From an uncultured Acidobacteriota bacterium (GTDB taxonomy: Bacteria; Acidobacteriota; Polarisedimenticolia; J045): 64,000 bases of DNA. The stretch spans positions 169,901 to 233,900 of the forward strand of contig CAVPCQ010000032.1 of the NCBI GenBank assembly GCA_963702425.1, written 5' to 3'. Position numbers and translations under genes: made by a program. This document shows, piece after piece, positions 7,793 to 56,477 of this stretch. How positions within the stretch are numbered: position 1 is the first letter of the stretch; each line of letters starts with the position of its first letter. The notes beneath the pieces were generated by a model. It was not told where the DNA came from, did not search any database, and was given only the letters and a program-made list of their open reading frames with translations.

Positions 7793-8910
7793 AGCGACGC
7801 ACCATCGTCCTTTCGCTGCTCGCGCTCTTCGCGCTGGCGATGGCGCTCCTCGCCGAGCGCCCGACCCCGCCGGTCTCGGTGCGGAGCCGCGCGCCGCGGG
7901 GGCTGCGCGCCGCCTTCCACTATCTCGAGCGGCGCGGTCTCGATGTCCGCGCGTGGGAGCACCCCCTCGCCCGCCTCCCCGAGCCGCCGGGGCTGCTGAT
8001 CATCGCCATGCCGCTCGCCGCCCCGCCGCTGCGCGAGGACCTCGAGGCGCTCGAGCGCTGGTCCCAGCGAGGGGGCAACACGCTGCTGCTGGCCGATCCG
8101 TCCGGTGCGGGGGCCTACGACGCGGCGCTGCTCGCCGCCTTCGGCCTGTCTCCGGTGCACGCCCAGGCCGAACCGCCGCTCGGCTGGCCCGGCTGGCGGC
8201 GCTGGCGCACCGCTGAGAGCGGATTGGCTCCCGCTCCCGCGCGCGCCGCCGCAGGGCGGACCGCCCGGCCGGTCATCCTGACGGGCGCCGCCCGCATCGG
8301 CGAACCGCCGAACACCGAGGCCTGGCTCCTCGACGACAAGGGGACGGCCTTCGTATTCGAGATCCCGCGCGGGCGCGGCCGGCTGGTCGTCGTCAACAAC
8401 GCGACGCTGCTCGCGAACGCCTGGCTGGCGCGCGACGGCAACCTCGCCTGGCTCGAGGAGATGCTCGGCGAGCTCGTCCCGGCGGGAGGGGCGGTGCTCT
8501 TCGACGAGTGGCACCAGGGGTACCGCGACGCCAGCGGGGAGACGCAGTCCGGGTCCGGCCTCGCGCTCACGCTGCTGCTCGCGCACCTCGGTTTCCTCTA
8601 CCTCGGGATCGTGTTCGTGCTGGCGCGGCCGTTCGGCCCGCGCCTGGCCGCCGAGGGCACGACCCCCGGCTCGATCGGCCGATCCCTGCTCGCCCTGGCC
8701 TCGTTGCACCGCGTCGGGCGGCACGCCGCCGAGGCCGGTCAGCTTCTGCTCGATCACGCCCGCCGCCTGGTCCCCGCGGAGCCGGGCGACGACCCGCTCC
8801 CCGAGCGCTTCGAAGGGGGAGAGGCGGAGTTCCTCGCGCTGGCCCGCATGGTCGGGGAGCGCCAGCAGCGGCGGGGTCGCCCGCCGCCCGTCCCGGAGGA
8901 TCCACGATGA
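7789..8910 (+). CDS. DUF4350 domain protein
   Basis: GTGA coupling; [13 protein letters not shown]...[16 protein letters not shown]. Confidence 0.8.
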
Positions 8911-9893
8911 CGACGTTCGACGATCCATCGCCGCTCACCCCCGCCGAAGCCGCGGCTCGACTCGTCGCGCTGCGCGAGGCGCTCGCCGGCGTCGTGGTCG
9001 GCCAGGGAGCGCCGCTCGACGAGATCATGGCGGCGCTCTTCGTCGGCGGGCACGTCCTGCTCGAGGGGGTCCCCGGCGTGGCCAAGACCCTGCTCGCGCG
9101 CGCACTCGCCGCGGCGCTGGGGCTCGAGTTCCGGCGCGTGCAGTTCACCCCCGATCTGATGCCGGCGGACGTCATCGGGACGAACGTCTTCGACTTCCAG
9201 CGCGGCCTGTTCCACCTGCAGAAGGGGCCGGTCTTCACCGAGGTCCTGCTTGCCGACGAGATCAACCGCACGCCGCCGAAGACCCAGGCGGCCCTGCTCG
9301 AGGCAATGCAGGAGCGGCAGGTGACGATCGACGGGGTGAGCCATCCGCTGGCGCCCTCGTTCTTCGTGATCGCAACCCAGAACCCGCTCGAGCACGAGGG
9401 GACCTATCCGCTCCCGGAAGCCCAGCTCGACCGCTTCCTGATGAAGGTCCTCGTCGGCTACCCGGCCGCGGCGGAAGAGCTGGAGATCTACCGCCGCTTC
9501 CTCGACGGCCGCGTGCGGCTCACGTCGACCGACCTCGGGCTGCCCGCCGTGCTCGCGCCGGGGGAGTTGCCGCGCCTGCGCGCCGCGCTCGGCGGGGTGC
9601 GGGTGGAGGAGCCGCTGCTCGGCTACCTCCACGCGATCGTCGAGGCGACGCGGCGCGCGCCGCAGCTCGCGGCGGGCGCGAGCCCGCGCGCCGGGATCGC
9701 CCTGCTGGCCGCGGCCCGCGCCTGGGCGGCGATGGAAGGGCGCGACTTCGCGATCCCCGACGACTTCAAACGGATGGCCCGTCCGGTCCTGCGCCACCGG
9801 CTGATCGCGACCCCCGAGACGGAGCTCGAGGGGAAAGGGACCGAAGAGATCCTCGGGACGCTGCTCGACCGGATCGAGGTGCCGCGCGGATGA
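8907..9893 (+). CDS. moxR: MoxR family AAA+ ATPase
   Basis: [58 protein letters not shown]. Confidence 0.96.
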
Positions 9894-11265: not shown

Positions 11266-13614
11266 TCAGCGCCTTCCCGGCGGCAGCAGCACGGACGCCG
11301 CCGCGTACAGCCCCACGCCGGCGAGCGCGACGTCATGGAACCCGGCGAGAATCGCCAGCGCGAGCGAGCAGACGCTGGCGAGCACGCTGGCGACGCCGTT
11401 GATCGCCCAGAACCAGGGCTTGCCGGCGTCGCCGAACCGGATCATCCCGACCGGGAACGCGAATCCCATGAGGTATCCGGGAAGCGCGAGCAGCAGCACG
11501 CTCGTCGCCACACGGGCCGGGAACCCCCAGCCCAGGCTGGCGCGGAACACGGGACCGAGGAGCAGCTCCGCGACGAGCACCGCCAGCGGCAGCAGGAACG
11601 CCCACCCGCGGCCGGCGAGGCGGGCCCGCGCGGCCGTCATGGCCCCGAGGCCGGCGCCCAGCAGCAGCGTTCCCAGGACCACCGCGGTCGCGTAGCTGGG
11701 ATGCCCGAGGTACAGGATGAAGCGCTGGATCCACGGCGCCTCGACGAACATGAACGCCAGTCCGATGGCCGCGAAGTAGGCGGTCCCGCGCCAGATGCCG
11801 GCGTGGCGCGGCAGCGCCCGCGCCAGCACGAGCGGCGCAGAGAAGGCGGCCAGCGCGAGCACGGCCATCCCCACGAGGAGCCGCCGGAGCGTGACCACCG
11901 ACTGGTCGTTGGCCGAGAGCGACGCCAGCGCGTCGCGGTTTACGTCTCCGAGCAGGCCGACGGTCTGGAAGAAGAAGGGCCGGTCGTCGGTCGGCGGCGT
12001 CAGATCGAACCCCTGCTCGCGCATCGACTCCCAGCCCGAGACGAGAACCTGCGCCAGCCGCGACTCGGCCGGCGTCTCGGCGCCCTGCGGCCAGTGCCGC
12101 ACCAGGCCGCGCGACGCGACGACCTCGTCGAGCTGCGACAGCCGTTCCGCGTCGAAGGGGCGACGGGAGACGAGCAGCGTGCCGACGCGCCCGGCCTGGA
12201 CCACCGCAAGGTGGCTCAGCGGATCGGCGACGCCTTCGCGCTCGAGCGCGAACCGGGCGAGCAGCGCGAGCCGCAGACCTTCGAGCTGACGCCGGCCCAT
12301 CATCCAGCGCGAGATCGAAACGACCCCGTCGTCCGAGAGCCGGTTCCAGTAGAGACGCAACGCCTCCTCGGTGTAGAGGTAGTTCTCGGAGAGCGCGAAG
12401 GCGCCGGCGGCCGTCGCCGCCCAGGTATCGATCAGCGAGATCTGGATCAGGTCGTACTTCTTGTCGGTGCGCGTCAGGAACGAGCGCCCCTCGGAGACGA
12501 CGGCGTTGACGTGCGGCAGGTGGTACACGTCCCCGGAGAACTCCCGGAATCGCCCCGAGACCAGGTCGACGATCTGCGGGTTGATCTCGATCGCATCGAT
12601 CTCCTGCGCGCCGGCCTCGCGGGCCGTCAGAATGTCACGACCGCCTCCCGCGCCGATGATGCAGACGGTTCGCGGCACCCGTAGCTGATAGCCCACGCTG
12701 GTCACATCGAAAAGCAGATGCTCCAGCGACTCCGGCCCGCCGCCGAGCCGCGTCACGGGCGTGCCCGCAGAGCCATCCTGTTCGATCCAGAGCTGCTCGA
12801 CCGCGTGGGGCGAAAAGCGCGTGCCGAGGCCCCAGTTGAAGGCCTCCTTCGGGTCCTTCTTCCAGAAGACCGTGTCGAAGACCGTGAGCCGGGCGGTGGC
12901 GGTCCACTTCTCGTAGAGCAGCGGACCGGTTTCCTCGTAGAGCTTGTTGTAGCGCAGCGTGTAGGGCGCCCCCCAGGCGATCGAGGCCGCGAGCGCCGCC
13001 GCGATGACCCCGGCCGCGCGACGTCGGGACGGGAACAGCACGGCCAGCGCCACGAGCGGCAGGAGCGCCGAGGCGGCGAGCAGGACCGGGGTCGCGACGA
13101 CGTTCATCAGCGGAATGACGAGCAGCGCCCCGCCCGTCGCCCCGAGCAGGTCGGCACCGTACATCCGCCCGATGGCGCGCCCGGTGACGCTCATCAGCAG
13201 CAGGCAAACGGCGGTCCCGAGAGCGAGCAGCGGCGGCAGCACGCTGACCAGCACCAGCAGCACGCGCCAACCGGCATCGGGCTGCGCTCCCAGCAGCGGC
13301 GACCGGTCCTCGCCCGCGGGCAGGAGCGCGCCCAGCTTGAAGATCGCGACGATCGAAAGCGGCACGAGAATGGCCGACACCTGGAGCGCGATGCGCAACG
13401 CGCGCGGGCGGGCGGGCCGCAGCGCGAACCAGATGCCGGGAGCGCCGAGCGCGAGCATGGCCAGCGACACCGAGAGAAAGGCGAAATGGTACCAGAGCAC
13501 GACGGAGAGGATCCGCGTGATGGCGATCTCGTAGATCAGGACGGTGCAGGAGACGAGCGCGATCGCGACCAGGAGAGACCGCTCGCCTCCGGAGACCTGT
13601 TCATCCGAGTGCAC
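11266..13614 (-). CDS. Membrane protein with spermidine-synthase-like SAM-binding domain
   Basis: YGADLLGATGG TM block; IIGAGGGRD, IEINP, EGRSFL, ENYLYTEEA, PTDDRPFFF. Confidence 0.85.
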   Translation of the reverse strand: MHSDEQVSGGERSLLVAIALVSCTVLIYEIAITRILSVVLWYHFAFLSVSLAMLALGAPGIWFALRPARPRALRIALQVSAILVPLSIVAIFKLGALLPAGEDRSPLLGAQPDAGWRVLLVLVSVLPPLLALGTAVCLLLMSVTGRAIGRMYGADLLGATGGALLVIPLMNVVATPVLLAASALLPLVALAVLFPSRRRAAGVIAAALAASIAWGAPYTLRYNKLYEETGPLLYEKWTATARLTVFDTVFWKKDPKEAFNWGLGTRFSPHAVEQLWIEQDGSAGTPVTRLGGGPESLEHLLFDVTSVGYQLRVPRTVCIIGAGGGRDILTAREAGAQEIDAIEINPQIVDLVSGRFREFSGDVYHLPHVNAVVSEGRSFLTRTDKKYDLIQISLIDTWAATAAGAFALSENYLYTEEALRLYWNRLSDDGVVSISRWMMGRRQLEGLRLALLARFALEREGVADPLSHLAVVQAGRVGTLLVSRRPFDAERLSQLDEVVASRGLVRHWPQGAETPAESRLAQVLVSGWESMREQGFDLTPPTDDRPFFFQTVGLLGDVNRDALASLSANDQSVVTLRRLLVGMAVLALAAFSAPLVLARALPRHAGIWRGTAYFAAIGLAFMFVEAPWIQRFILYLGHPSYATAVVLGTLLLGAGLGAMTAARARLAGRGWAFLLPLAVLVAELLLGPVFRASLGWGFPARVATSVLLLALPGYLMGFAFPVGMIRFGDAGKPWFWAINGVASVLASVCSLALAILAGFHDVALAGVGLYAAASVLLPPGRR

Positions 13615-13675
13615 CGACGCATGGTGAAGGAACGATCTGCCGATGACAAGCGGCGGTTCACGACGGCGCGGCGGA

Positions 13676-13702
13676 CGGGCCGGGACGGAGCCCGGCCCCT
13701 AC
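13676..13702. repeat. GTAG-type REP (family A variant)
   Basis: cgggccgggacggagcccggcccctac. Confidence 0.75.
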
Positions 13703-13857
13703 GGGTCTTCGGGACGATCGACCGGCGGCTTCGGCTCCCGCCCGGGGAGCTCACAGGACTGCGACATTCAGGTGGGGATCCCCATCCAGGGGAGGATCCA
13801 GCGCTGGAGCGCGAACCACGCGCCCAGGATCGCAAGAAAAAGCAGGATGTTGGTCAT
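13699..13857 (-). CDS. Small membrane protein, candidate selenoprotein (29 aa to TGA, 52 aa if UGA is read as Sec)
   Basis: ATG overlaps the upstream stop (TGATG); MTNILLFLAILGAWFALQRWILPWMGIPT-TGA(13770-13768)-MSQSCELPGREPKPPVDRPEDP-TAG; hairpin gctccc-cgggc-gggagc starts 18 nt after the TGA. Confidence 0.65.
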
Positions 13858-14150
13858 CAGACCAGTTGCTCCACGTTGACGACGCTCGCTCTCAGGCACG
13901 GCTGGATCTCGCATTTCCCGGCGAAATCCTGCAGGTCTTTCAGGATCGCCGCAACCGCCGCTTCCGACACCCCGGGGACGACGATCACGATCGCCCCGAA
14001 GGAGACCGTTCGGGGCAGGCTCGCGCGCTCGAGGAACTTGTGGCCCACCGCGCCCGGGATCTTCAGGTAGCCTTCCGCCCCGTGGCGGTCGAGCGCGCCG
14101 ACCACCTCGTGCTCGAGGTCCTCGCTGCAGTAGATGACGAGCTGCTTCAT
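13857..14150 (-). CDS. P-II-like (PG0541-like) transporter-associated protein
   Basis: ATGA overlap with RND stop; 97 aa MKQLVIYCSEDLEHEVVGALDRHGAEGY..IPGAVG; C-terminal CEIQPC. Confidence 0.75.
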   Translation of the reverse strand: MKQLVIYCSEDLEHEVVGALDRHGAEGYLKIPGAVGHKFLERASLPRTVSFGAIVIVVPGVSEAAVAAILKDLQDFAGKCEIQPCLRASVVNVEQLV

Positions 14151-17100
14151 TCCGCGTCTCCCGATGCCGGCGTCTCGTGCTTGGCGCGCTCGACCATGTA
14201 GTAGAGCACGGGCACGACGACCAGCGTCAAGACGGTCGAGGCCAGCGAGCCGAACATCAGGGCGATTGCCAGCCCCTGGAAGATCGGGTCGAACAGGATC
14301 ACCACCGCGCCCATGACCACCGCGCCCGCGGTCAGCACGATCGGCCGCGTCCGCACCGCCCCGGCCTCGACCAGCGCCTCGCCCAGCGTCCGCCCCTCGG
14401 CCAGCGCCAGCTCGACGAAATCGATCAAGAGGATCCCGTTGCGGACCATGATCCCGGCCAGCGCGATGAAGCCGATCATCGAAGTCGCGGTGAAGAAGGC
14501 TCCCAGCGCCCAGTGCCCCGGGACCACGCCGATCAGGCCGAGCGGAATCGCGACCATCATCACCAGTGGCACCGTGAACGATCGGAACCAGCCGATGATC
14601 AGCAGGTAGATCAGCACCAGCACGGCGGCGAAGGCGAAGCCGAGGTCGCGGAAGACCTCGTAGGTGATGTGCCACTCGCCGTCCCACTTCATCGCCGGCT
14701 TCTCTTCGGACCCCGGCTCGTCGCGGTAGTACTGCTCGACCACGCCGCCCCCGGGGACTTGCAGCTTGTCGATCTCCTTGGCCATCTTGAGGATCGCGTA
14801 GACTGGGCTCTCCTCGCGGCCGGAGACATCGGCGGTGACGTAGACGACGGGCTTCAGGTTCTTGCGGAACAGGCTGGCGTCCTCCGTCGTGCGGCGGACC
14901 GTCACCAGCTCCGACATCGGGACCATCGCCCCGCTCATCGCCGCGAGCTTGACCGCCGCGAGGGCCGCGACCGACGAACGCTCGGCCCGCGGCAGCTCGA
15001 CGCGGATCGGCACCGGCTCGGCCTCCGCGTCGCGGTGCAGCAGCCCCGCGTCCTCGCCGGCGATCAGCGCCCGCAGCGAGCGGGCAACCATCGCCGCCGG
15101 AACGCCATGGAGGGCAGCCTTCTCGCGGTCGACCTCGAAGACTTCCTTCGGCTGCGGCGCCTCGACCCACCAGTCGACGTCGACCACGGAGGGGGTCGAT
15201 TCGAAGATCCCCTTGATCCGCTCGGCCGTCGCGCGGCGGGCCTTCTCGTCCGGGCCGTAGACCTCCGCGACCAGCGTCGCCAGGACCGGCGGCCCCGGCG
15301 GGACCTCGGCGATCTTCACCGCCGCGCCGTTCTTCCTGGCGATTTCCTCCACCGCCGGGCGGATCCGCTTGGCGATGTCGTGGCTCTGGTCCTTGCGGTC
15401 GTGCTTGGGGGCCAGATTCACTTGAAGATCGGCGACATTGGCGCCGCGCCGCAGGTCGTAGTGCCGAACCAGGCCGTTGAAGTTGACCGGCGCCGACGTC
15501 CCGGCGTACAGCTCGACATCGGTCACCTCCGGCACGCTGCCCAGGTAGATCCCGATCTCGCGCGCCACGCGCGCCGTGTCCTCGAGCGTCGTCCCCTCCG
15601 GCATGTCGACCACGATCTGCAGCTCGCTCTTGTTGTCGAACGGCAGCATCTTCACCGCGACCATCTTGAGCGGGAACATCGCCACGGCGCCCGCCAACAG
15701 CAGCGCGACGCCCCCCAGGAAGCCCCAGCGGAGCGCGGGCTTCTCCATCATCGGCACGAGGATCCGGCGATAGAGGCCGTAGATCCTGGTCCGCTTGACG
15801 TCGTACTCCTCGTCGTGGGCGTGTCCGCCGCGCAGCAGCCGGTAGGCCAGCCAGGGGGCGATCGTCAGCGCGACGACCAGCGAGAAGAGCATCGCCAGCG
15901 ACGCGCCGATCGGCATCGGCGCCATGTAGGGACCCATCAGGCCGCGCACGAAGGCCATCGGCAGCAGGGCCGCGATGACGGTGAAGGTCGCCAGGATCGT
16001 CGGGTTGCCGACCTCGGAGACCGCGGTCACCGCGGCCTGCAGCGCCGGCAGCTTCTTCATCGAGAAGTGCCGGGCGACGTTCTCGACGACGATGATCGAG
16101 TCGTCGACGACGAGCCCGGTGACGAAGATCAGCGCGAAGAGGGTCACGCGGTTCAGGGTGTAGCCGAAGACGTAGTAGATGAAGAGCGTCAGGGCGAAGG
16201 TCACCGGCAGCGAGATGAAGACCACCAGCGAGCCGCGCCACCCGAGCGACAGGGCGATGAAGATCGTCACGATCACGATCGTGAGGAGCAGGTGCAGCTC
16301 CAGCTCGTCGACCTTTTCGCGCGCGGTCTCGCCGTAGTTCCGCGTCACCTCGACTTCGACGCCGCCCGGGACCAGCGTCCCCTTCAGTGCGTTGACCTTG
16401 TCGAGCGCGGCGGCGGTCACGCGGTAGGCGTCCGCCCCCTTGCGCTTGGCGAGCGACAGGGTGACCGCGTCGTAGAGGCCGGCCGGCGCCTCGATGCCGC
16501 GCGTCCGCGCCGCCGGCCCGGGCGAGAAGGCGACGTAGTCGGCCGGCTCCTCCGGGCCGTCGAGCACGGTGGCGACGTCCCGCAGGTAGATCGGCTTTCC
16601 CTCGTGTGCACCGACGACCAGCCCCTCGACGTCCTCGCGGCTCCTCAGGAACCCGCCGGTCTCGACCTTGACCTCGCGGTTCCCCTGCTCGATGCTGCCG
16701 GCCGGGGCGCTCGCGTTCTGGAACTGCAGCGCCTGGACGATCGTCCCCGGGTCGGCGTGCATCGCCGCCATCCGGCCGCCGTCGAGCTGCACCCGCACCG
16801 CGCGCCGCTGGCCGCCGATGATCTTGATCTCCGAGACGTCGTCGAGCCGCGACAGTTCCCTGCCCATCTCGGCCGCCAGCCGCCGCAGCGCGAAGCCGTC
16901 CTGGTCCTTGCGCGCGCTCCAGAGCGTCAGCCCCAGCACCGGCACGTCGTCGATCGCCCGCGTCCTGATCAGCGGCGGAGTCGCGCCGGGCGGCATCCGG
17001 TCCAGCCCCGAGACGAGCTTGTCGTAGATCTTGACCAGGCTGCGCTCCTGGTCCTCGCCCACCTTGAAGCGGACCGTGACCATCGCCACGCTGGGCATCG

Positions 17101-17371
17101 ACCCGGAGTAGACGTACTCGACCCCGGGAATCTCCGCCATCCGCTTTTCCAGCGGGATCGTGACGCGGTTCTCGACGGCCTGGGGCGAGGCGCCCGGCAG
17201 GCCGACGAAGATGTCGACCATCGGGACGACGATCTGCGGCTCCTCCTCGCGCGGCGTGAGCAGCACCGCGAACCCGCCGAGCAGGAGCGACGCCACGATC
17301 AAGAGCGGCGTCAGCTTGGAGTCGATGAAGAAGTGGGCGACCTTGCCGGCCGGCCCGAGGCTGGGGGTCAT
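14147..17371 (-). CDS. RND efflux permease (PREEEPQI subfamily)
   Basis: 1074 aa; GLVVDDSIIVVEN, RNGILLIDF, RTRPIVLT. Confidence 0.95.
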   Translation of the reverse strand: MTPSLGPAGKVAHFFIDSKLTPLLIVASLLLGGFAVLLTPREEEPQIVVPMVDIFVGLPGASPQAVENRVTIPLEKRMAEIPGVEYVYSGSMPSVAMVTVRFKVGEDQERSLVKIYDKLVSGLDRMPPGATPPLIRTRAIDDVPVLGLTLWSARKDQDGFALRRLAAEMGRELSRLDDVSEIKIIGGQRRAVRVQLDGGRMAAMHADPGTIVQALQFQNASAPAGSIEQGNREVKVETGGFLRSREDVEGLVVGAHEGKPIYLRDVATVLDGPEEPADYVAFSPGPAARTRGIEAPAGLYDAVTLSLAKRKGADAYRVTAAALDKVNALKGTLVPGGVEVEVTRNYGETAREKVDELELHLLLTIVIVTIFIALSLGWRGSLVVFISLPVTFALTLFIYYVFGYTLNRVTLFALIFVTGLVVDDSIIVVENVARHFSMKKLPALQAAVTAVSEVGNPTILATFTVIAALLPMAFVRGLMGPYMAPMPIGASLAMLFSLVVALTIAPWLAYRLLRGGHAHDEEYDVKRTRIYGLYRRILVPMMEKPALRWGFLGGVALLLAGAVAMFPLKMVAVKMLPFDNKSELQIVVDMPEGTTLEDTARVAREIGIYLGSVPEVTDVELYAGTSAPVNFNGLVRHYDLRRGANVADLQVNLAPKHDRKDQSHDIAKRIRPAVEEIARKNGAAVKIAEVPPGPPVLATLVAEVYGPDEKARRATAERIKGIFESTPSVVDVDWWVEAPQPKEVFEVDREKAALHGVPAAMVARSLRALIAGEDAGLLHRDAEAEPVPIRVELPRAERSSVAALAAVKLAAMSGAMVPMSELVTVRRTTEDASLFRKNLKPVVYVTADVSGREESPVYAILKMAKEIDKLQVPGGGVVEQYYRDEPGSEEKPAMKWDGEWHITYEVFRDLGFAFAAVLVLIYLLIIGWFRSFTVPLVMMVAIPLGLIGVVPGHWALGAFFTATSMIGFIALAGIMVRNGILLIDFVELALAEGRTLGEALVEAGAVRTRPIVLTAGAVVMGAVVILFDPIFQGLAIALMFGSLASTVLTLVVVPVLYYMVERAKHETPASGDAE

Positions 17372-18531
17372 CGTGTCACCTCAGCGGGCCTTGCGCCGGA
17401 ACTGGAGGGGCCGGGGTCGGACGCGCCGGAGATCGGCGCGCCGTCGGCGATCCCCGCGGGCGGCGCGCTGACGTAGCGCTCGCCGGCGGAGAGGCCCGAG
17501 AGGACCTCGACCCGGTCGCCGAGCAGCGCCCCCGGCCGCACCCAGCGCAGCCGCGCCTTGCCCGCCTCGTCCACGATCCAGACGCCCTGGAGCTGTCCGC
17601 GCTCGACCAGCGCCGCCGCCGGCACGGTCAGCGTTTCCCGCGTCCCCTTCGGGAACCGGATGCGCACGTACATCCCCGGCTTGATCGCGCCGCCGGGGTT
17701 GTCGAGCAGCAGCTTCACCGCGAAGGTCCGGCTCATCGAATCGCCGGCCGGGACGATCCGCTCGACCGTCGCCGGGACCGGCGCGCCCAGCACGTCGATC
17801 GCGACCGTCGCCGGCGCGCCTTCCGCGAGGCCGACGATCTGCGCCTCCGGCACCTGCGCCACGACCCGGACCTTCGACAGGTCGTCCACCGTGAAGAGCG
17901 GCATCCCGGGCGACGCCATGTCGCCGGCTTCGATCCGCTTCGCGGTGACGACGCCGGAGACCGGGGTCGAGACGATGGCGTAGCCGAGCATCACCTGGGC
18001 CGCCGCGAGATTCGCCTGCGCCTGCTGCACGCCGGCCCTGGCCATGTTGTAGCCGGCGGTCGCATCCTCGAGGTTCTTGGCGGTGGCGGAGCCGCGTTCG
18101 ACCAGCGCGGTCATGCGCTTGTACGTCGCCTCGGCGTTCGTCTGCTGCGCCTCGGCCATCGCGACGCCGGCCTTCGCCTGCTCGACCGCCGCCGCCAGGT
18201 CGCGGCTCTCGAGCCGCGCCAGCGCCTGCCCGGCGCGGACGGCGTCCCCCTCGCGGACCATCACGCGCTCGACGCGCCCCATGATCTTCGTGCCGGGGGA
18301 GACGCGCTCGATCGGCTCGACCGCGCCGGACACCTCGACGACATCAGCCGAGGAGGCCAGCTCGGCCACGGCGACCGGCGCCGACACGGCGGCCGGCTCG
18401 GCGGGAGGGGCGACCTCGTGCCGGCCGCCGCAGCCGGCGGAGAGCAGGACCGCGGCCAGCGCGGCGACAACGAGGACGACGGAAGCGGGTCGGGAACTCG
18501 GGCGGCGGATCATCGGCGGTTCTCCCGTCAC
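17368..18531 (-). CDS. RND periplasmic adaptor (MFP), lipoprotein
   Basis: LSAGC lipobox; VREGDAVRAGQAL and PVSGVV lipoyl halves. Confidence 0.93.
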   Translation of the reverse strand: MTGEPPMIRRPSSRPASVVLVVAALAAVLLSAGCGGRHEVAPPAEPAAVSAPVAVAELASSADVVEVSGAVEPIERVSPGTKIMGRVERVMVREGDAVRAGQALARLESRDLAAAVEQAKAGVAMAEAQQTNAEATYKRMTALVERGSATAKNLEDATAGYNMARAGVQQAQANLAAAQVMLGYAIVSTPVSGVVTAKRIEAGDMASPGMPLFTVDDLSKVRVVAQVPEAQIVGLAEGAPATVAIDVLGAPVPATVERIVPAGDSMSRTFAVKLLLDNPGGAIKPGMYVRIRFPKGTRETLTVPAAALVERGQLQGVWIVDEAGKARLRWVRPGALLGDRVEVLSGLSAGERYVSAPPAGIADGAPISGASDPGPSSSGARPAEVTR

Positions 18532-19859
18532 AGGCGGCCGATGGCCAGCTTCAGGCGGGCCTCGGCGAGCAGGACATCGCGGCGTGCGGAGACTTCGCGG
18601 GTGCGGGAGGAGGTCAGCGCGGTCTCGGCGGCCAGCAGCTCGACCAGCGTCGTCAGCCCCTCCTTGTAGCGGTCCTCGACGATCACGAGGCTGGCCTCCG
18701 CGGACTCGATCGCCTTGGCCGCGTGTCCGAGGCTCTCGCGCGAGGCCTTCAGATCGTAGAACGCCTGCCGCACCTCGAGACCGGCCATCTGGCGCAGGTG
18801 GTTCGCGTATTCGGTCGCCTGGCGCTGCTGCTCCTCCGCGCGGCGCACGCGGGAGCGCGTGCCGAAGCCATCGAACGCGTTCCAGGTGACGGTGCCCATC
18901 ACGGTCCAGTTGGTGCCGTCGGCGCCGATGAAGTCCTCCGCGTTCGCCTCGTAGGCCCCACCGACGCCGATTTCGGGCAGGTAGCCGGCGCGCGCCACCT
19001 TGATCATCTTCTCTGCGGCACCGGTCCGCGCGACTGCGGCCTTGAGATCGGGGCGCGCGTCGATCGCCTCCTTCGTCAGCGCGTCGAGATCGCTCTCGGT
19101 GAAGACCGGAACGTCGACGCTCGCCGGCAGCGCGTGGGGCGTGTCGAGCGGCAGCCCCATGGCGAGGTTCAGCCCGGCGCGCGCCACCGCCGCCTGGCTG
19201 TCGGCGCGGGTCAGCATGTCCCTCAGCTCCAGCTCGCGGACCTCCGCCTGGAGCAGGTCGGAGCGGACGACCATCCCGGTCTCGACCATGTCGCGCACGA
19301 GCTTGACGTGGGCTGACGCCGTCTTCAGCCCCTCGCCGGCGACGCCGCGGGTGCTCTCGGCCAGCACGGCGCCGCTGTAGGCCTCGATCACCCGCTGCGT
19401 GACCTGCTGGCGCGCCGTGTCGCGGTCGGCCGCCGCGGCCGCCGCCCCCAGCTCGGCCGCCGCGACCCCGCCGGCGATCTTCCCGCCGCTCCAGATCGGC
19501 TGCATCACGGCCAGCTTGGTGTTCCAGTTGTTGGTGGCGGGCGGCTCGTTGAGGAAGTTCGGATCAAAGTTGGCCGGGCCGAAGCGCTCCTGCGACAGGA
19601 GGTCGCTGAAGACCAGGACCGGGTTGGTGCTGCGCGACGCGAACTCCGAGAGCTGAACCCGGGGGAGGCGCCAGGAGCGGGCCTCGTCGACCTGCGCCTC
19701 GGCCGCACCAACCCCGGCGTCGGCCGCGCGCAGCAGCGGGTTCTGCTCGAGCGCGGTCGCGACGGCCTCGTCGAGCGTCAGCGGGGCGGCCTCGGCCGCA
19801 GCGGCCGGCCGGGCCAAGCCCAGCGCCAGGATTACCAGGCCAAGTACGATGCGCTTCAT
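18528..19859 (-). CDS. TolC family outer membrane factor
   Basis: Signal peptide; LTLDEAVATALEQNP, RYKEGLTTLVELLAAE. Confidence 0.93.
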   Translation of the reverse strand: MKRIVLGLVILALGLARPAAAAEAAPLTLDEAVATALEQNPLLRAADAGVGAAEAQVDEARSWRLPRVQLSEFASRSTNPVLVFSDLLSQERFGPANFDPNFLNEPPATNNWNTKLAVMQPIWSGGKIAGGVAAAELGAAAAAADRDTARQQVTQRVIEAYSGAVLAESTRGVAGEGLKTASAHVKLVRDMVETGMVVRSDLLQAEVRELELRDMLTRADSQAAVARAGLNLAMGLPLDTPHALPASVDVPVFTESDLDALTKEAIDARPDLKAAVARTGAAEKMIKVARAGYLPEIGVGGAYEANAEDFIGADGTNWTVMGTVTWNAFDGFGTRSRVRRAEEQQRQATEYANHLRQMAGLEVRQAFYDLKASRESLGHAAKAIESAEASLVIVEDRYKEGLTTLVELLAAETALTSSRTREVSARRDVLLAEARLKLAIGRL

Positions 19860-19936
19860 GGCGATGTCACCCTCGCGGGGCCCGGCGGGACCGCCGGGCC
19901 GGCGGATAGCGCAGAGATGCCGCGGCGGGGGCCGGG

Positions 19937-21050
19937 TTACAGCCAGCGGCGGGTCCGGAACCAGAGGTACATCCCGAGCGCCGCGGCCGCCATCAGGCCG
20001 AGCGCTCCGTACCAGCCCGAGACCTGCTCCTTCCCGGGGAACAGGACGTTCATCCCGCCGACGCTGGCGATGAAGGTCATCGGCATGAAGATCGTGCTGA
20101 TCAGGGTCAGGGCCTTCATCACCTCGTTCAGCTTGAGGCTGACGGCGTTCAGGTAGAGGTCGTGCACGGTGCCGACGACGTCCCGCAGGTTCTCCAGCAT
20201 GTCGATCAGCTGGATCGTGTGATCGTAGATGTCGCGGAAGTAGATTCGGGATTCGGGGCGCAGAAGCGCCGCTCTCGCCCCGCTCGAGCCAGGAGATGAC
20301 CTCGCGCATCGGCCAGACGGTCCGGCGCATCTCGATCAGCGAGCGCTTCATCGCCAGCACGCTCTCGATCGTCTCACGACTTGGATCGGAGAGGACCCGG
20401 TCCTCGAGGTCCTCGAGCTTGACGCCCAACTGCTCCGTGATGACGAAGTAGTTGTCGACGATCGTATCGAGCAGCCGGTACATGAGGTAATCGACGCTTC
20501 TCTGGCGCGCCTGGGCCTGACCCTGCGCGATGCGCGACGCGATCCCGCCGAACAACGTCGGCTGCTGCTCTTCGAAGGTGATCAGCCAGTCCTTCCCGAG
20601 CACGAAGCTGACCTGCTCGGCCACCACCTCGCCCGACTCCGCGTCGAGTGACAGGTTGCGGACCACGACGAAGAGATAGTCGCCGTAGTCGTCGCACTTG
20701 GGGCGCTGGCCGACGTTGACGATATCTTCGACGACCAGCGGGTGCAGGCCGAACATCTCCGCCACCTTCTGGATCTGCGCGACATCGTGCACCCCGTCGA
20801 TGCAGATCCAGCTCGGCCGCCCCGAGTCGCGGAACCGGGGAAGATCGGACGGCTTGACGTCCGCGTGGAGCGATGCCGTCGCGGTGTCGTAGTCGAGGAC
20901 GCTGATCCGGATCGGGCGCGCGACCTCGGCCCCGGTGTAGACGGGGGTGCCGGGGGGGAGTCCGGCCTTCTGCGCGCGGTGGCCCCGGGCAGCTTTGCGA
21001 CGGCGTCGGCTCACGGCCGGATTATCGCCGTGTCCAGTTTGACGGTCCAC
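19937..21050 (-). CDS. corA: Mg/Co transporter CorA (frameshift near 20250)
   Basis: [20 protein letters not shown]; C-terminal frame has NEVMKALT and GMN. Confidence 0.9.
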
Positions 21051-48686: not shown

Positions 48687-48807
48687 CGCGGAATCCCCGG
48701 GGGCGGCGATGAATGTACCGCGACTGCCGCCTCCGGGGGCCCGGCGCAGGCGTCCGGAGTCGGGCAGGGTCTGACCGCGCGCGACCGCATGCGGACAGTG
48801 ATGCTCC

Positions 48808-53876: not shown

Positions 53877-54902
53877 TCACGCCGGCCGGACGCCCGCTTT
53901 CCGCGGCTTCTCCCGCTCCCCGTCGCGGGCCCTCTGCCAGGCGAAGTAGAGCATGACCATTCCGAACAACCCGGGGACCCGGAGCAGCTCCGAGGCCTTC
54001 GGGGCCAGCAGCACGACGGCGACCAGGCCGGTGAAGGCCAGGCCCAGCGCCGCCGCGAAGGCTCGCGCCGGCTCGCGCCTCGACCAGAGGGCCAGCCCGG
54101 CGAGGGCCAAGCCCCACGCCACGGAGCCGAGCGCGGGCCAGAGCGCCGGGACGAACAGCAGCACGAGCCCCTGCACGATCGCCGCGGCGGCCGGGAAGTA
54201 GAGCAGCCAGCGCACGATCCGGAACCGGCGGCCGGCCTGCATCTGCTCCAGAGTCGCGGCCTCCTCCGGGCCGAAGGGGGGCGCGGCGTCGGCTTCGTCA
54301 CGATCGAGACGGAGCACCGCCCGGGCCGCCGCAAGGTCGCGCTCGGCCACCCAGAGCTGCGTCTCCCCCTGCTGCCCCACGCCGACCGCGAACTGCTGCG
54401 AGAACTGCGACGCGGTGACGTCGATCCCCGCCGCCTCCAGCCGGGACCGGATCGTTGCGACCTCGACGGCGTCGGCGGCGCGGACCAGCAGCACGCTGCC
54501 GTCGCTGGCCAGGTGCGCCAGCAGGCCCTGGTCGGCGCGCTCGCGGTTGCCTTCGTCGACGAAGAAGTGCACGAGCGGGCCGGAGCCGGTGTCCTCCCCG
54601 TCGCACGGCGGTTCCTCGTACTCGACGAACGGGACCTCCAGCTCCGCCAGCTGCTCGCGGAACAGCGCGCGCTCGGCCTCGTCGCGCGCGGCCCGCAGGT
54701 GCCCGAGCGACGACGCGCCGAAGCGGTCGGACGGAGCGCCCGGGACCGAGCGCGCCAGCTCCGCCTCCAGCTGTTCGCGCGACGGTGTGATCGATCCGCA
54801 CTTCGCGCACCGCTCGACCGGAATGCGCCAGGTCGCGCCACACCCCAGGCAGAAACGCTGCGCCGTGGAATCGGTCAGGTCGAGTCGACGGCAGGCCATC
54901 AT
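53877..54902 (-). CDS. Hypothetical protein: Zn-ribbon, DUF2007-like domain, C-terminal TMs
   Basis: FCLGC/CAKC; EVATIRSRLEAAGI...LWVAERD..AAR; four hydrophobic segments. Confidence 0.7.
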   Translation of the reverse strand: MMACRRLDLTDSTAQRFCLGCGATWRIPVERCAKCGSITPSREQLEAELARSVPGAPSDRFGASSLGHLRAARDEAERALFREQLAELEVPFVEYEEPPCDGEDTGSGPLVHFFVDEGNRERADQGLLAHLASDGSVLLVRAADAVEVATIRSRLEAAGIDVTASQFSQQFAVGVGQQGETQLWVAERDLAAARAVLRLDRDEADAAPPFGPEEAATLEQMQAGRRFRIVRWLLYFPAAAAIVQGLVLLFVPALWPALGSVAWGLALAGLALWSRREPARAFAAALGLAFTGLVAVVLLAPKASELLRVPGLFGMVMLYFAWQRARDGEREKPRKAGVRPA

Positions 54903-55090
54903 CCCCCCCTCTCGACGCACCGGGGATCCGGCGGAGAACGGTGCCGGAAGCTCTGCGTTCGAGCGCATTCTAGCACCGCGGAGCGCGACGGATAGCCGGT
55001 ATTGGCCGCGTTTCGCCATCGTCTCAGGGTAGCACCGGCGAATTGGTGCTGAGCCTACGCTCCCCGCCTCAGAATCCGCGACTTGAATCG

Positions 55091-56477
55091 CCTACCGCGG
55101 CGCTCCGGCCGCAACCCAGTCGATGACCTTCGCGATCCGGTGATGGCCCTTGCCCTCGGACCCCGATCGGGTGTGCGATCGGTCCATGGACGCCTTTCTC
55201 GACAAGCACGCCGACAAGCTCCAGGGCTCGCTCTCCTGCTTCGACCGCCTGCTCTTTCGCGGCTACCTGCCGTTCTTCTACGGCCGGGAGATGACGCAGT
55301 TCCTCAAGCGCCAGGGGGTCCGGCCCGACGGCCTGAAGGACTTCCTCGTCGGGCAGGCCGAGCGCCTGAAGCAGCACGCGCGTCAACTGGCCCAGCGCCA
55401 GGGCCGGCCGTTCCTGTTCTTCGCGGAGCGGGTGCGCAAGGATGAGATGGCGCGCGAGATCGCCGAGCGGAGCGGGATCACGGAGGGACTGGTCTGCGTC
55501 CTGTCGACGCTCGAGCCGTGCTGGACCTTCGCGCTCCGCTGGGATGATGCCTCCTACGTCCGGCCGGCCCGGCGGAAATGCCTGTTCCTGTACTTCTGCT
55601 TCATCGACCGTGAGCTGGGCCTGATTCACGTCAAGCTCCAGACCTGGTTCCCGATGCAGCTCCAGGTGTCCGTCAACGGTCACGAGTGGCTGGCCCGCAA
55701 GCTGACACGCAGCGGCGTGCCTTACACCAAGCACGACAACGTCTTCCTGGGCGAGGTCGTGACCGATCGCAGGAGCTTCGCTCCACGGCCGGCTTCCCGG
55801 CTCGCCGGGTCAAGCACCGGCATGAAGGCGAACTGGATCAAGATGGTTGACAAGGACGGTCTGGTCCTGCGGGTCGAGACCGTGATCAACCAGCCCGACG
55901 AGTTCCGGGTTCGGCGCCGCGTCCGCCGCGGCGGCCGCCGCGTGACGGCATGGGTCCCCTTGAGGAAGAGCGTGGCCACCCTCTTCCGCTACCGCGAGAT
56001 CTCGCTCCAGAGCAACGCGCGGGATCTCAATGCCCTGGCCCAGGTCGATGATCCAACGGAGGGCGTGCGCGCCCTGGACTCCCTCACGACGCGCAAGAAC
56101 ACCGCCGCCGCGCGGCCGGTCAAGCCCTTCCATCCGCTCTCTCGACCCGACACCCAGCTCTTCGCCGCCCTGATGCGCGGCGAACAGGCGCTCCATGGCT
56201 TCACGAATCGCGATCTCCGCAAGACCCTCGATCCGTCCGCGTTCTCACTGCACGACGACCCCCGCAAGCGCAGCGCCCAGATCAGCCGGCTTCTGCATCG
56301 GCTCCACCTCTACCGACTGATCGCCAAGATCCCCCGCTCCCGCCGCTGGCGGCTCACCGACTTTGGATGGCGCATCATGAGCGCGGCTCTCGAATTGCGG
56401 TACAGCGCGTTTCCCGCTGCCTTGGCCGCGGCCGCTTGATTCTGCTGCCCACTTCTCTGCAAAGTGCGGAGAAGTTA
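55091..56477 (+). mobile_element. Putative hairpin-ended mobile element
   Basis: Left hairpin gcggc-gctccg-gccgc (55097-55112); right 11-bp hairpin acttctctgca-aag-tgcggagaagt (56451-56475); abuts a 5'-truncated gene. Confidence 0.55.
55186..56439 (+). pseudogene. Transposase-like protein (CFDR / YF.FID.ELG / NGHEWL / KMxDK..LRVET family) with C-terminal wHTH, probably degenerate
   Basis: Motifs as named; KMVDK where I recall KMYDK in the family; LIAKIPRSRRWRLT wing. Confidence 0.6.

Follow-up and report, generated by a model that had tools for sequence, protein, structure and literature searches.

The 64,000-nucleotide stretch of DNA analysed here (the window), from contig CAVPCQ010000032.1 of an uncultured Acidobacteriota bacterium (assembly GCA_963702425.1), carries on its minus strand a small gene (13857-13699) with an in-frame TGA at 13770-13768. 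From the comparison of related sequences we consider it highly probable that this is a real gene and that its UGA is decoded as selenocysteine (Sec) by SelB. With the TGA written as U, the read-through frame gives MTNILLFLAILGAWFALQRWILPWMGIPT-U-MSQSCELPGREPKPPVDRPEDP, a product of 52 residues closed by TAG at 13701-13699, which is laid out as a helix (residues 2-24) followed by the segment P-x-x-G-I-P-T-U-M-S-Q-S-C and a charged tail. Judged by its sequence, the gene belongs to a new, large and widespread family with Sec and Cys forms that is unnamed in the family libraries and selenoprotein lists checked. It is the last gene of a tightly packed operon encoding a TolC-like outer membrane factor, a periplasmic adaptor, a resistance-nodulation-division (RND) permease and a P-II-like protein (Table 1), and the stop codon of the P-II-like gene (TGA at 13859-13857, after CTGGTC) shares its A with the ATG of the small gene (13857-13855) in the sequence TGATG. 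The listing of open reading frames (ORFs) under translation table 11 splits the small gene into 13768..13914, starting from an upstream in-frame ATG, and 13699..13767. The original prediction, made from the letters of the window, had described an ORF missing from the ORF track, its overlapping start, the TGA and a hairpin behind it, and the sequence bears out all of these details. On the opposite strand an ORF of 78 residues, 13643..13879(+), overlaps the gene; as the conserved signal lies entirely in the minus-strand frame, we take this ORF to be an artefact of high GC content.

Conservation of the TGA and of the frame beyond it

When 61 related genomes were searched in six frames for the 52-residue read-through (cut-off E < 0.01), 19 places were returned, and at all of them the alignment runs on beyond a single in-frame TGA. 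L033 in genome G046 (E 0.003) was not member-like on inspection and was dropped, and the remaining 18 homologues align unambiguously with W14, L22, P23, G26, T29, U30, C35 and R40 invariant. A profile search over 401 genomes sampled across the phylum Acidobacteriota gave matches in 114 genomes and in 71 of 227 genera, with the TGA form present in 113 of the 401 genomes (about 28%). From this search 106 further places were fetched, 105 of which carry the motif (104 with TGA, one with Cys); L194, without the motif, was dropped. Some places had been listed as stop-free because their alignments ended before the TGA, which is present there too. To these we added a scan of one genome per species with the DNA pattern W-[IV]-L-P-x2-G-[IV]-x-T-[U/C]-x4-C, which yielded at least 120 matching stretches; of the 80 that were fetched, 78 are family members (69 TGA, 9 Cys) and two, L239 and L256, are chance matches and were dropped. 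Beyond Acidobacteriota, the TGA form was found among these 80 stretches in Planctomycetota, Desulfobacterota, Verrucomicrobiota, Gemmatimonadetes and Melainabacteria. Among the matches listed, the TGA-form records belong to Acidobacteriota, Pirellulaceae, Planctomycetaceae, Gemmatales, Isosphaeraceae, Phycisphaerales and Candidatus Kuenenia as well as to Desulfomonile, Syntrophobacteraceae, Syntrophales, Desulfuromonadales, Obscuribacterales, Verrucomicrobiales, Akkermansiaceae, Roseibacillus and Gemmatimonadetes.

Taken together these searches give 190 unique Sec-form loci, and the TGA occupies the same column in every one of them. The in-frame open stretch after the TGA runs from 12 to 140 codons (median 26), and fewer than 10 open codons follow in 0 of 190 loci in the frame of the gene, as compared with 30 and 47 of 190 in the other two frames. 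The original prediction had named a conserved TGA together with a conserved downstream Cys as evidence in its favour, and both are found, in the 18 first relatives as well as in the wider set, where Cys stands at position +5 from the TGA in 166 of 190 loci (codons TGC in 121 and TGT in 45). Met at +1 and Ser at +2 each occur in 115 of 190 loci, the Ser being written with both TCN and AGC codons. On the upstream side Thr-1, Gly-4 and Pro-7 are invariant, with Thr and Gly each written with four codons. The recurrence of this arrangement in 190 unique loci is far beyond chance.

A subtype with the sequence ...G-V-P-T-U-A-V-P-x-P... and no Cys at +5 occurs in the Acidobacteriota loci L147, L163, L164, L174, L175, L179, L180 and L183-L193, some of whose members have a Cys 11-17 residues further on. 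At locus L058 (genome G028) a convergent ORF for an Rdx (SelW-like) protein, 8712-9071, overlaps the tail of the read-through frame of the small gene, and this copy of the small gene is without a canonical in-frame start codon.

Cysteine forms in databases and genomes

Searching protein databases with the profile returned 271 proteins at E <= 0.01, of which 53 were fetched. Forty of these are full length (41-88 residues) and carry Cys at the TGA column within ...G-[IV]-P-T-C-M-S-G-x-C..., some of the Cys forms having extra cysteines past the motif. Ten others end exactly at ...G-x-x-T, that is at the TGA column, and the remaining three carry W there, presumably where a gene caller read TGA as Trp. 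At the level of genomic DNA we count 10 Cys-form loci, nine from Planctomycetota-type records of the pattern scan and one in the 401-genome sample. Homologues with Cys in place of the TGA, which the original prediction had proposed to look for, are thus present both among database proteins and in genomes. The database homologues are annotated only as "hypothetical protein", and an exhaustive search of 1.84 billion cluster representatives gave 1751 matches at E <= 0.001 and 172 at E <= 1e-10.

A SECIS-type hairpin downstream of the UGA

In bacteria Sec insertion depends on a selenocysteine insertion sequence (SECIS) inside the coding region; according to the bacterial SECIS criteria of Zhang and Gladyshev, this is reportedly a stem-loop about 20 nt past the UGA with G (often GU) at the start of the loop. 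The GU of the loop has a role in SelB binding. The hairpin of the window begins 18 nt after the UGA; 23 nt separate its loop from the UGA, and the second loop base is G. Across the family, a stem of at least 4 contiguous pairs past the Cys codon is found in 188 of 189 Sec-form sequences, and the loops are chiefly GUC (41), GGUC (34), GGA (21), GGC (14), AGUU (14) and the window's own type CGGGC (9). A stricter count demanded a stem of at least 5 bp whose loop starts 17-24 nt past the UGA and has G as its first or second base. Such a hairpin is carried by 164 of 184 unique Sec forms, against 1 of 10 Cys forms, 8% of 1840 dinucleotide shuffles, 7% at +400 nt and 18% in the upstream 57 nt; the enrichment over the dinucleotide shuffles is approximately ten-fold.

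The stem sequences differ widely between lineages. For 61 sequences with the hairpin in a common register, both-side changes occur at 7 of 8 pairs and the covariation score is 0.637, whereas shuffles give 0.211 and slid partners no more than 0.186; these seeds were picked for a hairpin in that register, a choice that favours the result. A covariance model (R1) built from the 61 seeds and run on 96 sources gave 89 matches, nearly all at the small gene, and matches the window at 13724-13770(-) with 23.2 bits (E 0.0035). In the alignment of the 89 matches all 8 pairs show compensatory changes, and both-side changes amount to 183 cells versus 53 +/- 9 in shuffles, none of 500 shuffles reaching as high; this alignment, being made by the model, leans toward the model's structure, but slid controls of at most 0.170 versus 0.592 speak against an alignment artefact. 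The SECIS-type geometry that had been proposed for the window's hairpin therefore finds support in both the position counts and the covariation across the family.

RNAalifold on a plain MAFFT alignment recovered 3 pairs only, because the registers of the hairpins differ by 1-2 nt, which the covariance model solved. The folding energy of the 57 nt after the UGA, measured against mononucleotide shuffles, has a mean z of -0.71 for Sec and 0.0 for Cys forms and barely separates the two, and for this reason position-specific hairpin counts were used. Rfam returned nothing meaningful, its best match being Guanidine-II on the other strand (E 0.15). The covariance model also has a weak match elsewhere in the window, at 48710-48755(+) (16.3 bits, E 0.25), probably by chance.

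Selenocysteine machinery

The host assembly (5.1 Mb in 42 contigs, 91% complete) encodes selA (507 bits), selB (313 bits) and selD (340 bits), and ARAGORN finds a tRNA-Sec with the anticodon TCA, so that the machinery whose absence the original prediction had listed as a refutation is present in full. The host selD (L010; contig C16 of genome G000, 54490-55428) has one in-frame TGA, and SelD would therefore itself be a selenoprotein. ARAGORN also reports a second "tmRNA" on contig C20 (58557-58791) with an odd tag of 25 residues, in addition to the ordinary tmRNA of C31; the copy on C20 is probably a false positive.

In the sample of 401 genomes selA occurs in 301, and 111 of the 113 TGA-form genomes are selA-positive (two tables compared by eye). 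In G389 (99% complete), the one genome of the sample with the Cys form, both selA and selB are absent. The denominators and the selA-positive genomes include three unpublished genomes (G034, G082 and G106), none of which has a counted family member. As relatives are not independent, the co-occurrence with selA is descriptive.

Predicted membrane topology and novelty of the family

An AlphaFold2 model based on 42 aligned sequences predicts a single helix (residues 2-24) with a predicted local distance difference test score (pLDDT) of about 89 over the first 20 residues, the remainder being coil with pLDDT 59-72 (overall mean 74.8). Over 200 unique sequences, positions -26 to -13 are hydrophobic, D/E occurs at -27 in 74%, K/R occurs at -11 in 64%, at -6 in 82% and at +10 in 62%, and beyond about +10 the tail is charged. 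Since basic residues follow the helix, the positive-inside rule would place the N-terminus outside and the C-terminal part in the cytoplasm, and the segment P-x-x-G-x-x-T-U-x4-C would consequently lie at the inner face of the membrane. The homologue columns, the hairpin and the Sec machinery thus support what had been proposed for the product, a 52-residue single-helix membrane selenoprotein with a U-x4-C motif.

The Sec form matches no family in NCBIfam (release 20, June 2026; E <= 10) or Pfam-A (E <= 1), small pump partners included, four Cys forms match no NCBIfam family at E <= 0.001, and the ESM Atlas contains unnamed clusters only. Among the 119 families in Table 1 of a 2026 review there is neither a small single-pass membrane family nor a U-x4-C motif (PMC13188914), and the word "membrane" is absent from the main texts of deep-Sep (PMC12013277) and BSepDB (PMC13326102). 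A full-text literature search found nothing on a small membrane selenoprotein of this kind. Selenoprotein inventories draw mostly on proteins long enough to call and compare, and a 29-codon ORF closed by UGA escapes them.

Gene neighbourhoods across the family

We surveyed the surroundings of the gene at 201 loci. An RND gene lies directly upstream on the same strand at 27 loci, which are spread over several families of the phylum Acidobacteriota, within 3 kb in another arrangement at 8, and further away at 10; at 156 loci there is none in the stretch covered (about 6 kb on each side, less on short contigs). Clustering of the neighbouring ORFs, with Pfam labels, gave as the most frequent group a mixed cluster of rhodaneses, YgaP-like transmembrane (TM) proteins and DUF2202 proteins (29 loci), followed by RND (25), thioredoxin (17, several directly adjacent), SufS (16), SufBD (14, in the same lineage as SufS), TauE/SafE (12), ArsR (12), DUF302 (11), extracytoplasmic function (ECF) sigma factors (11) and Usp (8). 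A Pfam scan of same-strand ORFs no more than 400 nt from the small gene, covering 146 of 208 such ORFs, found Aminotran_5 in 13, DUF302 in 8, Thioredoxin, TauE and Rhodanese in 6 each, Usp in 4, ArsR in 2 and Sulf_transp in 1; two of the rhodaneses are fused to a metallo-beta-lactamase domain and one to a YgaP-like TM domain.

Where RND is linked to the small gene in other lineages, a YgaP-like membrane gene and a P-II-like gene with a Cys pair stand between the two, often together with ArsR, Usp or DUF302. A YgaP-like (DUF2892) gene of 62-77 residues with a W-C-P motif stands directly behind RND and upstream of the small gene at L098, L106, L108, L109, L113 and L114, and the same arrangement is seen at L125, L163, L179, L180, L183 and L187. 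In two TauE-linked loci (L155, 6172-6453; L167, 5672-5965) a gene for an EncFtn-like protein (encapsulated ferritin) lies directly downstream of the small gene.

Possible functions and alternative explanations

Several observations weigh against the selenoprotein interpretation or against a uniform function of the family. The support for translation and for Sec insertion is sequence-based and predicted, and the window's own hairpin stands at the weak end of the family, with a stem of 6 bp, a loop without the commoner GU and a low model score. Two TGA-form genomes have no selA match, namely G271 (95% complete, selB 363 bits) and G362 (64% complete), the latter being without a selB match as well. 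The Cys at +5 is missing from 24 of the 190 Sec forms, mostly of the U-A-V-P-x-P subtype, so that a selenenylsulfide with that Cys is not the universal chemistry; the tail is poorly conserved past about +10, and the topology is inferred from charge bias alone. Neighbourhoods are heterogeneous, with most loci lacking a nearby RND gene and 36 of 201 lacking any of the nine tallied neighbour types, and as many of the counted loci are close relatives, the counts overstate the independent support.

In the mechanism we propose, the hairpin would direct SelB to the UGA and Sec would be inserted, giving a single-pass membrane protein of 52 residues with an acidic N-terminus and the U-x4-C motif at the inner membrane face. 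We lean, tentatively, towards a role of the selenol/thiol pair as a membrane-tethered redox or relay site that is re-reduced by thioredoxin. The pair could cycle via a selenenylsulfide, or carry a bound chalcogen or soft metal, and would serve modules dealing with reactive sulfur, selenium or metal(loid) species and their export, the host module in the window being the translationally coupled operon of TolC, adaptor, RND and P-II-like genes. What recurs in the neighbourhoods suggests thiol/selenol redox chemistry and the handling and export of such species, and not a dedicated pump subunit. Somewhat less assured, yet still conceivable, is the broader proposal of an undescribed and very widespread family of single-pass membrane selenoproteins of about 50 residues, acting as a selenol relay with thioredoxin, rhodanese-type sulfurtransferases and exporters (TauE, RND). 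The roles of relay, soft-metal ligand and RND accessory overlap.

The protein might instead be a membrane-bound binder or chaperone of soft metals or metalloids (Hg, Cu, Cd, As, Te), with the selenolate and thiolate as ligands and not as a redox couple. A selenolate and a thiolate with a four-residue spacing beside the membrane would suit such a role, ArsR neighbours (12 of 201 loci) and RND pumps with CusB/CzcB-like adaptors occur, and the extra cysteines of some Cys forms fit as well; but the RND of the window falls short of the CusA/CzcA cut-off (299 versus 701 bits), the commonest neighbours are sulfur-handling and thiol-redox genes and not metal transporters, and no metal-binding family matches the small protein, which makes this explanation rather unlikely.

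Less likely again is an AcrZ-like accessory role at the RND pump, as favoured in the original prediction, in which the small protein would bind the permease and modulate it via redox state or by metal binding. Part of that proposal stands: the operon is packed, with an ATGA overlap between the RND and P-II-like genes besides the TGATG overlap with the small gene, and this translational coupling means that a local link to the pump may hold in the window. The operon order is kept in 9 of 17 relatives of the class (a tenth has the operon divergent), the P-II-like neighbour has an invariant Cys pair, and other RND-linked loci add Cys-bearing YgaP-like membrane genes. As a general role of the family, however, pump binding is contradicted by the scarcity of RND genes in the neighbourhoods, with a match directly upstream in only 27 of 201 loci and none nearby in 156, and the small protein resembles no Pfam or NCBIfam family, those of small pump partners included.

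That the TGA is an ordinary stop behind a 29-residue peptide, with the hairpin as a terminator or RNA-stability element, is very improbable: gene callers do give 29-residue products, 10 of the 53 fetched entries end at the TGA column, the tail is poorly conserved past +10 and UGA termination probably occurs when selenium is scarce, but an ordinary stop leaves unexplained the full-length homologues with Cys at this column followed by the same M-S-G-x-C, a downstream frame that is always open, the synonymous changes in conserved codons past the TGA, the lack of the hairpin in Cys forms and the co-occurrence with selA.

Relation to known systems

The model case of a bacterial selenoprotein gene with a SECIS inside the ORF that is read by SelB is E. 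coli fdhF. The small gene resembles bacterial genes of this type in its in-frame UGA with a downstream stem-loop, its Cys homologues and the presence of selA, selB, selD and tRNA-Sec in the genome; unlike the catalogued bacterial selenoproteins, its product has about 50 residues, would be membrane-anchored and is without a Pfam or NCBIfam model. In architecture it may be compared with eukaryotic SELENOK and SELENOS, small single-pass membrane proteins whose cytosolic, largely disordered C-terminal part bears Sec at the extreme C-terminus and whose SECIS lies in the 3' untranslated region. This is an architectural analogy with no detectable sequence relation (no Pfam match), and in contrast to both proteins the Sec of the small protein is located about 6 residues past the helix, with the SECIS inside the ORF. 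AcrZ, an RND pump partner of about 50 residues with one helix and without a Sec/Cys motif, is similar in size, in its single helix and, in the window, in the link to RND, but has no sequence match to the small protein, which lies behind RND in a minority of loci. YgaP-like TM proteins (PF11127, DUF2892) and the membrane rhodanese YgaP are likewise small, Cys-bearing and linked to sulfur transfer, and recur as neighbours of the small gene; they differ in having two helices and a W-C-P motif inside the membrane domain and form a separate family with no match to the small protein.

Bacterial selenoproteins linked to transport, as described in the review cited above, include a MerT-like mercuric transport protein, YeeE/YedE (GUxSG), SaoP and the SO_0444 Cu/Zn efflux transporter (PMC13188914). 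They share with the small protein a Sec in a membrane protein tied to the transport of metal(loid) or sulfur compounds, and the U-x-S-G of many members of the small family resembles the GUxSG of YeeE/YedE listed there, which we regard as a lead only (PMC13188914). All four are multi-pass transporters with models of their own, none of which matches the small protein.

If the Sec reading holds, the family would add a selenoprotein to about a quarter of the sampled Acidobacteriota genomes and to many Planctomycetota, Desulfobacterota, Verrucomicrobiota and others, and estimates of selenium use by soil and sediment bacteria would shift. Architecturally it would be the bacterial equivalent of the membrane selenoproteins K and S of eukaryotes, and it would point to an unstudied thiol/selenol step at the inner membrane face that is linked to thioredoxin, sulfurtransferases and exporters. 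Should the relay reading be true, the handling of sulfur, selenium or metalloids in bacteria would include a common step that depends on Sec and that has stayed invisible because gene callers stop at UGA. The pairs of Sec and Cys forms and the simple peptide offer a directly testable system.

The operon in the window

Table 1. Position of the small gene, its elements and the other genes of the operon in the window.
Feature	Position	Strand	Remarks
Small gene, predicted selenoprotein	13699..13857	-	52 codons, then TAG; from sequence and translation
In-frame TGA, residue 30 (Sec30), probably read as selenocysteine	13770-13768	-	homologue column TGA or Cys
TGT codon of Cys35, partner in the U-x4-C motif	13755-13753	-	Cys at +5 in homologues
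SECIS-type hairpin in the coding sequence	13750-13734	-	6-bp stem GCUCCC (GCTCCC, 13750-13745)/GGGAGC (13739-13734), loop CGGGC (13744-13740)
GC-rich stem-loop	13677..13698	-	GGGCCGGG/CCCGGCCC, right after TAG, without T-run
P-II-like gene	13857..14150	-	97 codons; stop overlaps ATG of small gene, ATG overlaps RND stop (ATGA)
RND permease	14147..17371	-	1074 residues; PF00873 E 4e-163
Periplasmic adaptor (membrane fusion protein)	17368..18531	-	HlyD_D23 E 3.5e-34; TIGR01730 233.9 bits, above cut-off
TolC-like outer membrane factor ORF with in-frame N-terminal CorA-like soluble domain	18528..21050	-	OEP E 1e-62; CorA (residues 80-259) E 2e-32

The P-II-like gene scores below the cut-offs of the models it resembles, with 18.8 bits (cut-off 45, E 0.0012) for NF045581, the PG0541 family of transporter-associated proteins, and 14.6 bits (cut-off 25, E 0.042) for PF00543, for which the copy of a relative reaches 30.1 bits. 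Its product has C-x3-P-C near the C-terminus in 11 of 11 orthologues, with C80, P84 and C85 invariant. The two cysteines have the same four-residue spacing as the U-x4-C of the small protein, and P-II-like genes of other lineages carry C-x2-C instead. The RND permease scores below the NCBIfam cut-offs of the multidrug as well as the CusA/CzcA subfamilies. In the TolC-like ORF (840 residues) the CorA-like domain occupies residues about 78-259, and TIGR01844 and TIGR00383 also match. In G004, a genome of the same genus, the TolC-like and CorA-like parts are 8 nt apart and hence in different frames; the single ORF of the window would be either a fusion or the result of a frame error in one of the assemblies.

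A consensus scan for promoters and terminators found none, the stem-loop at 13677..13698 included; this stem-loop is possibly the end of the operon transcript. The next gene downstream, at 11266-13614(-), encodes a multi-pass membrane protein of 782 residues with a spermine/spermidine synthase-like domain (PF01564, E 1.8e-6).

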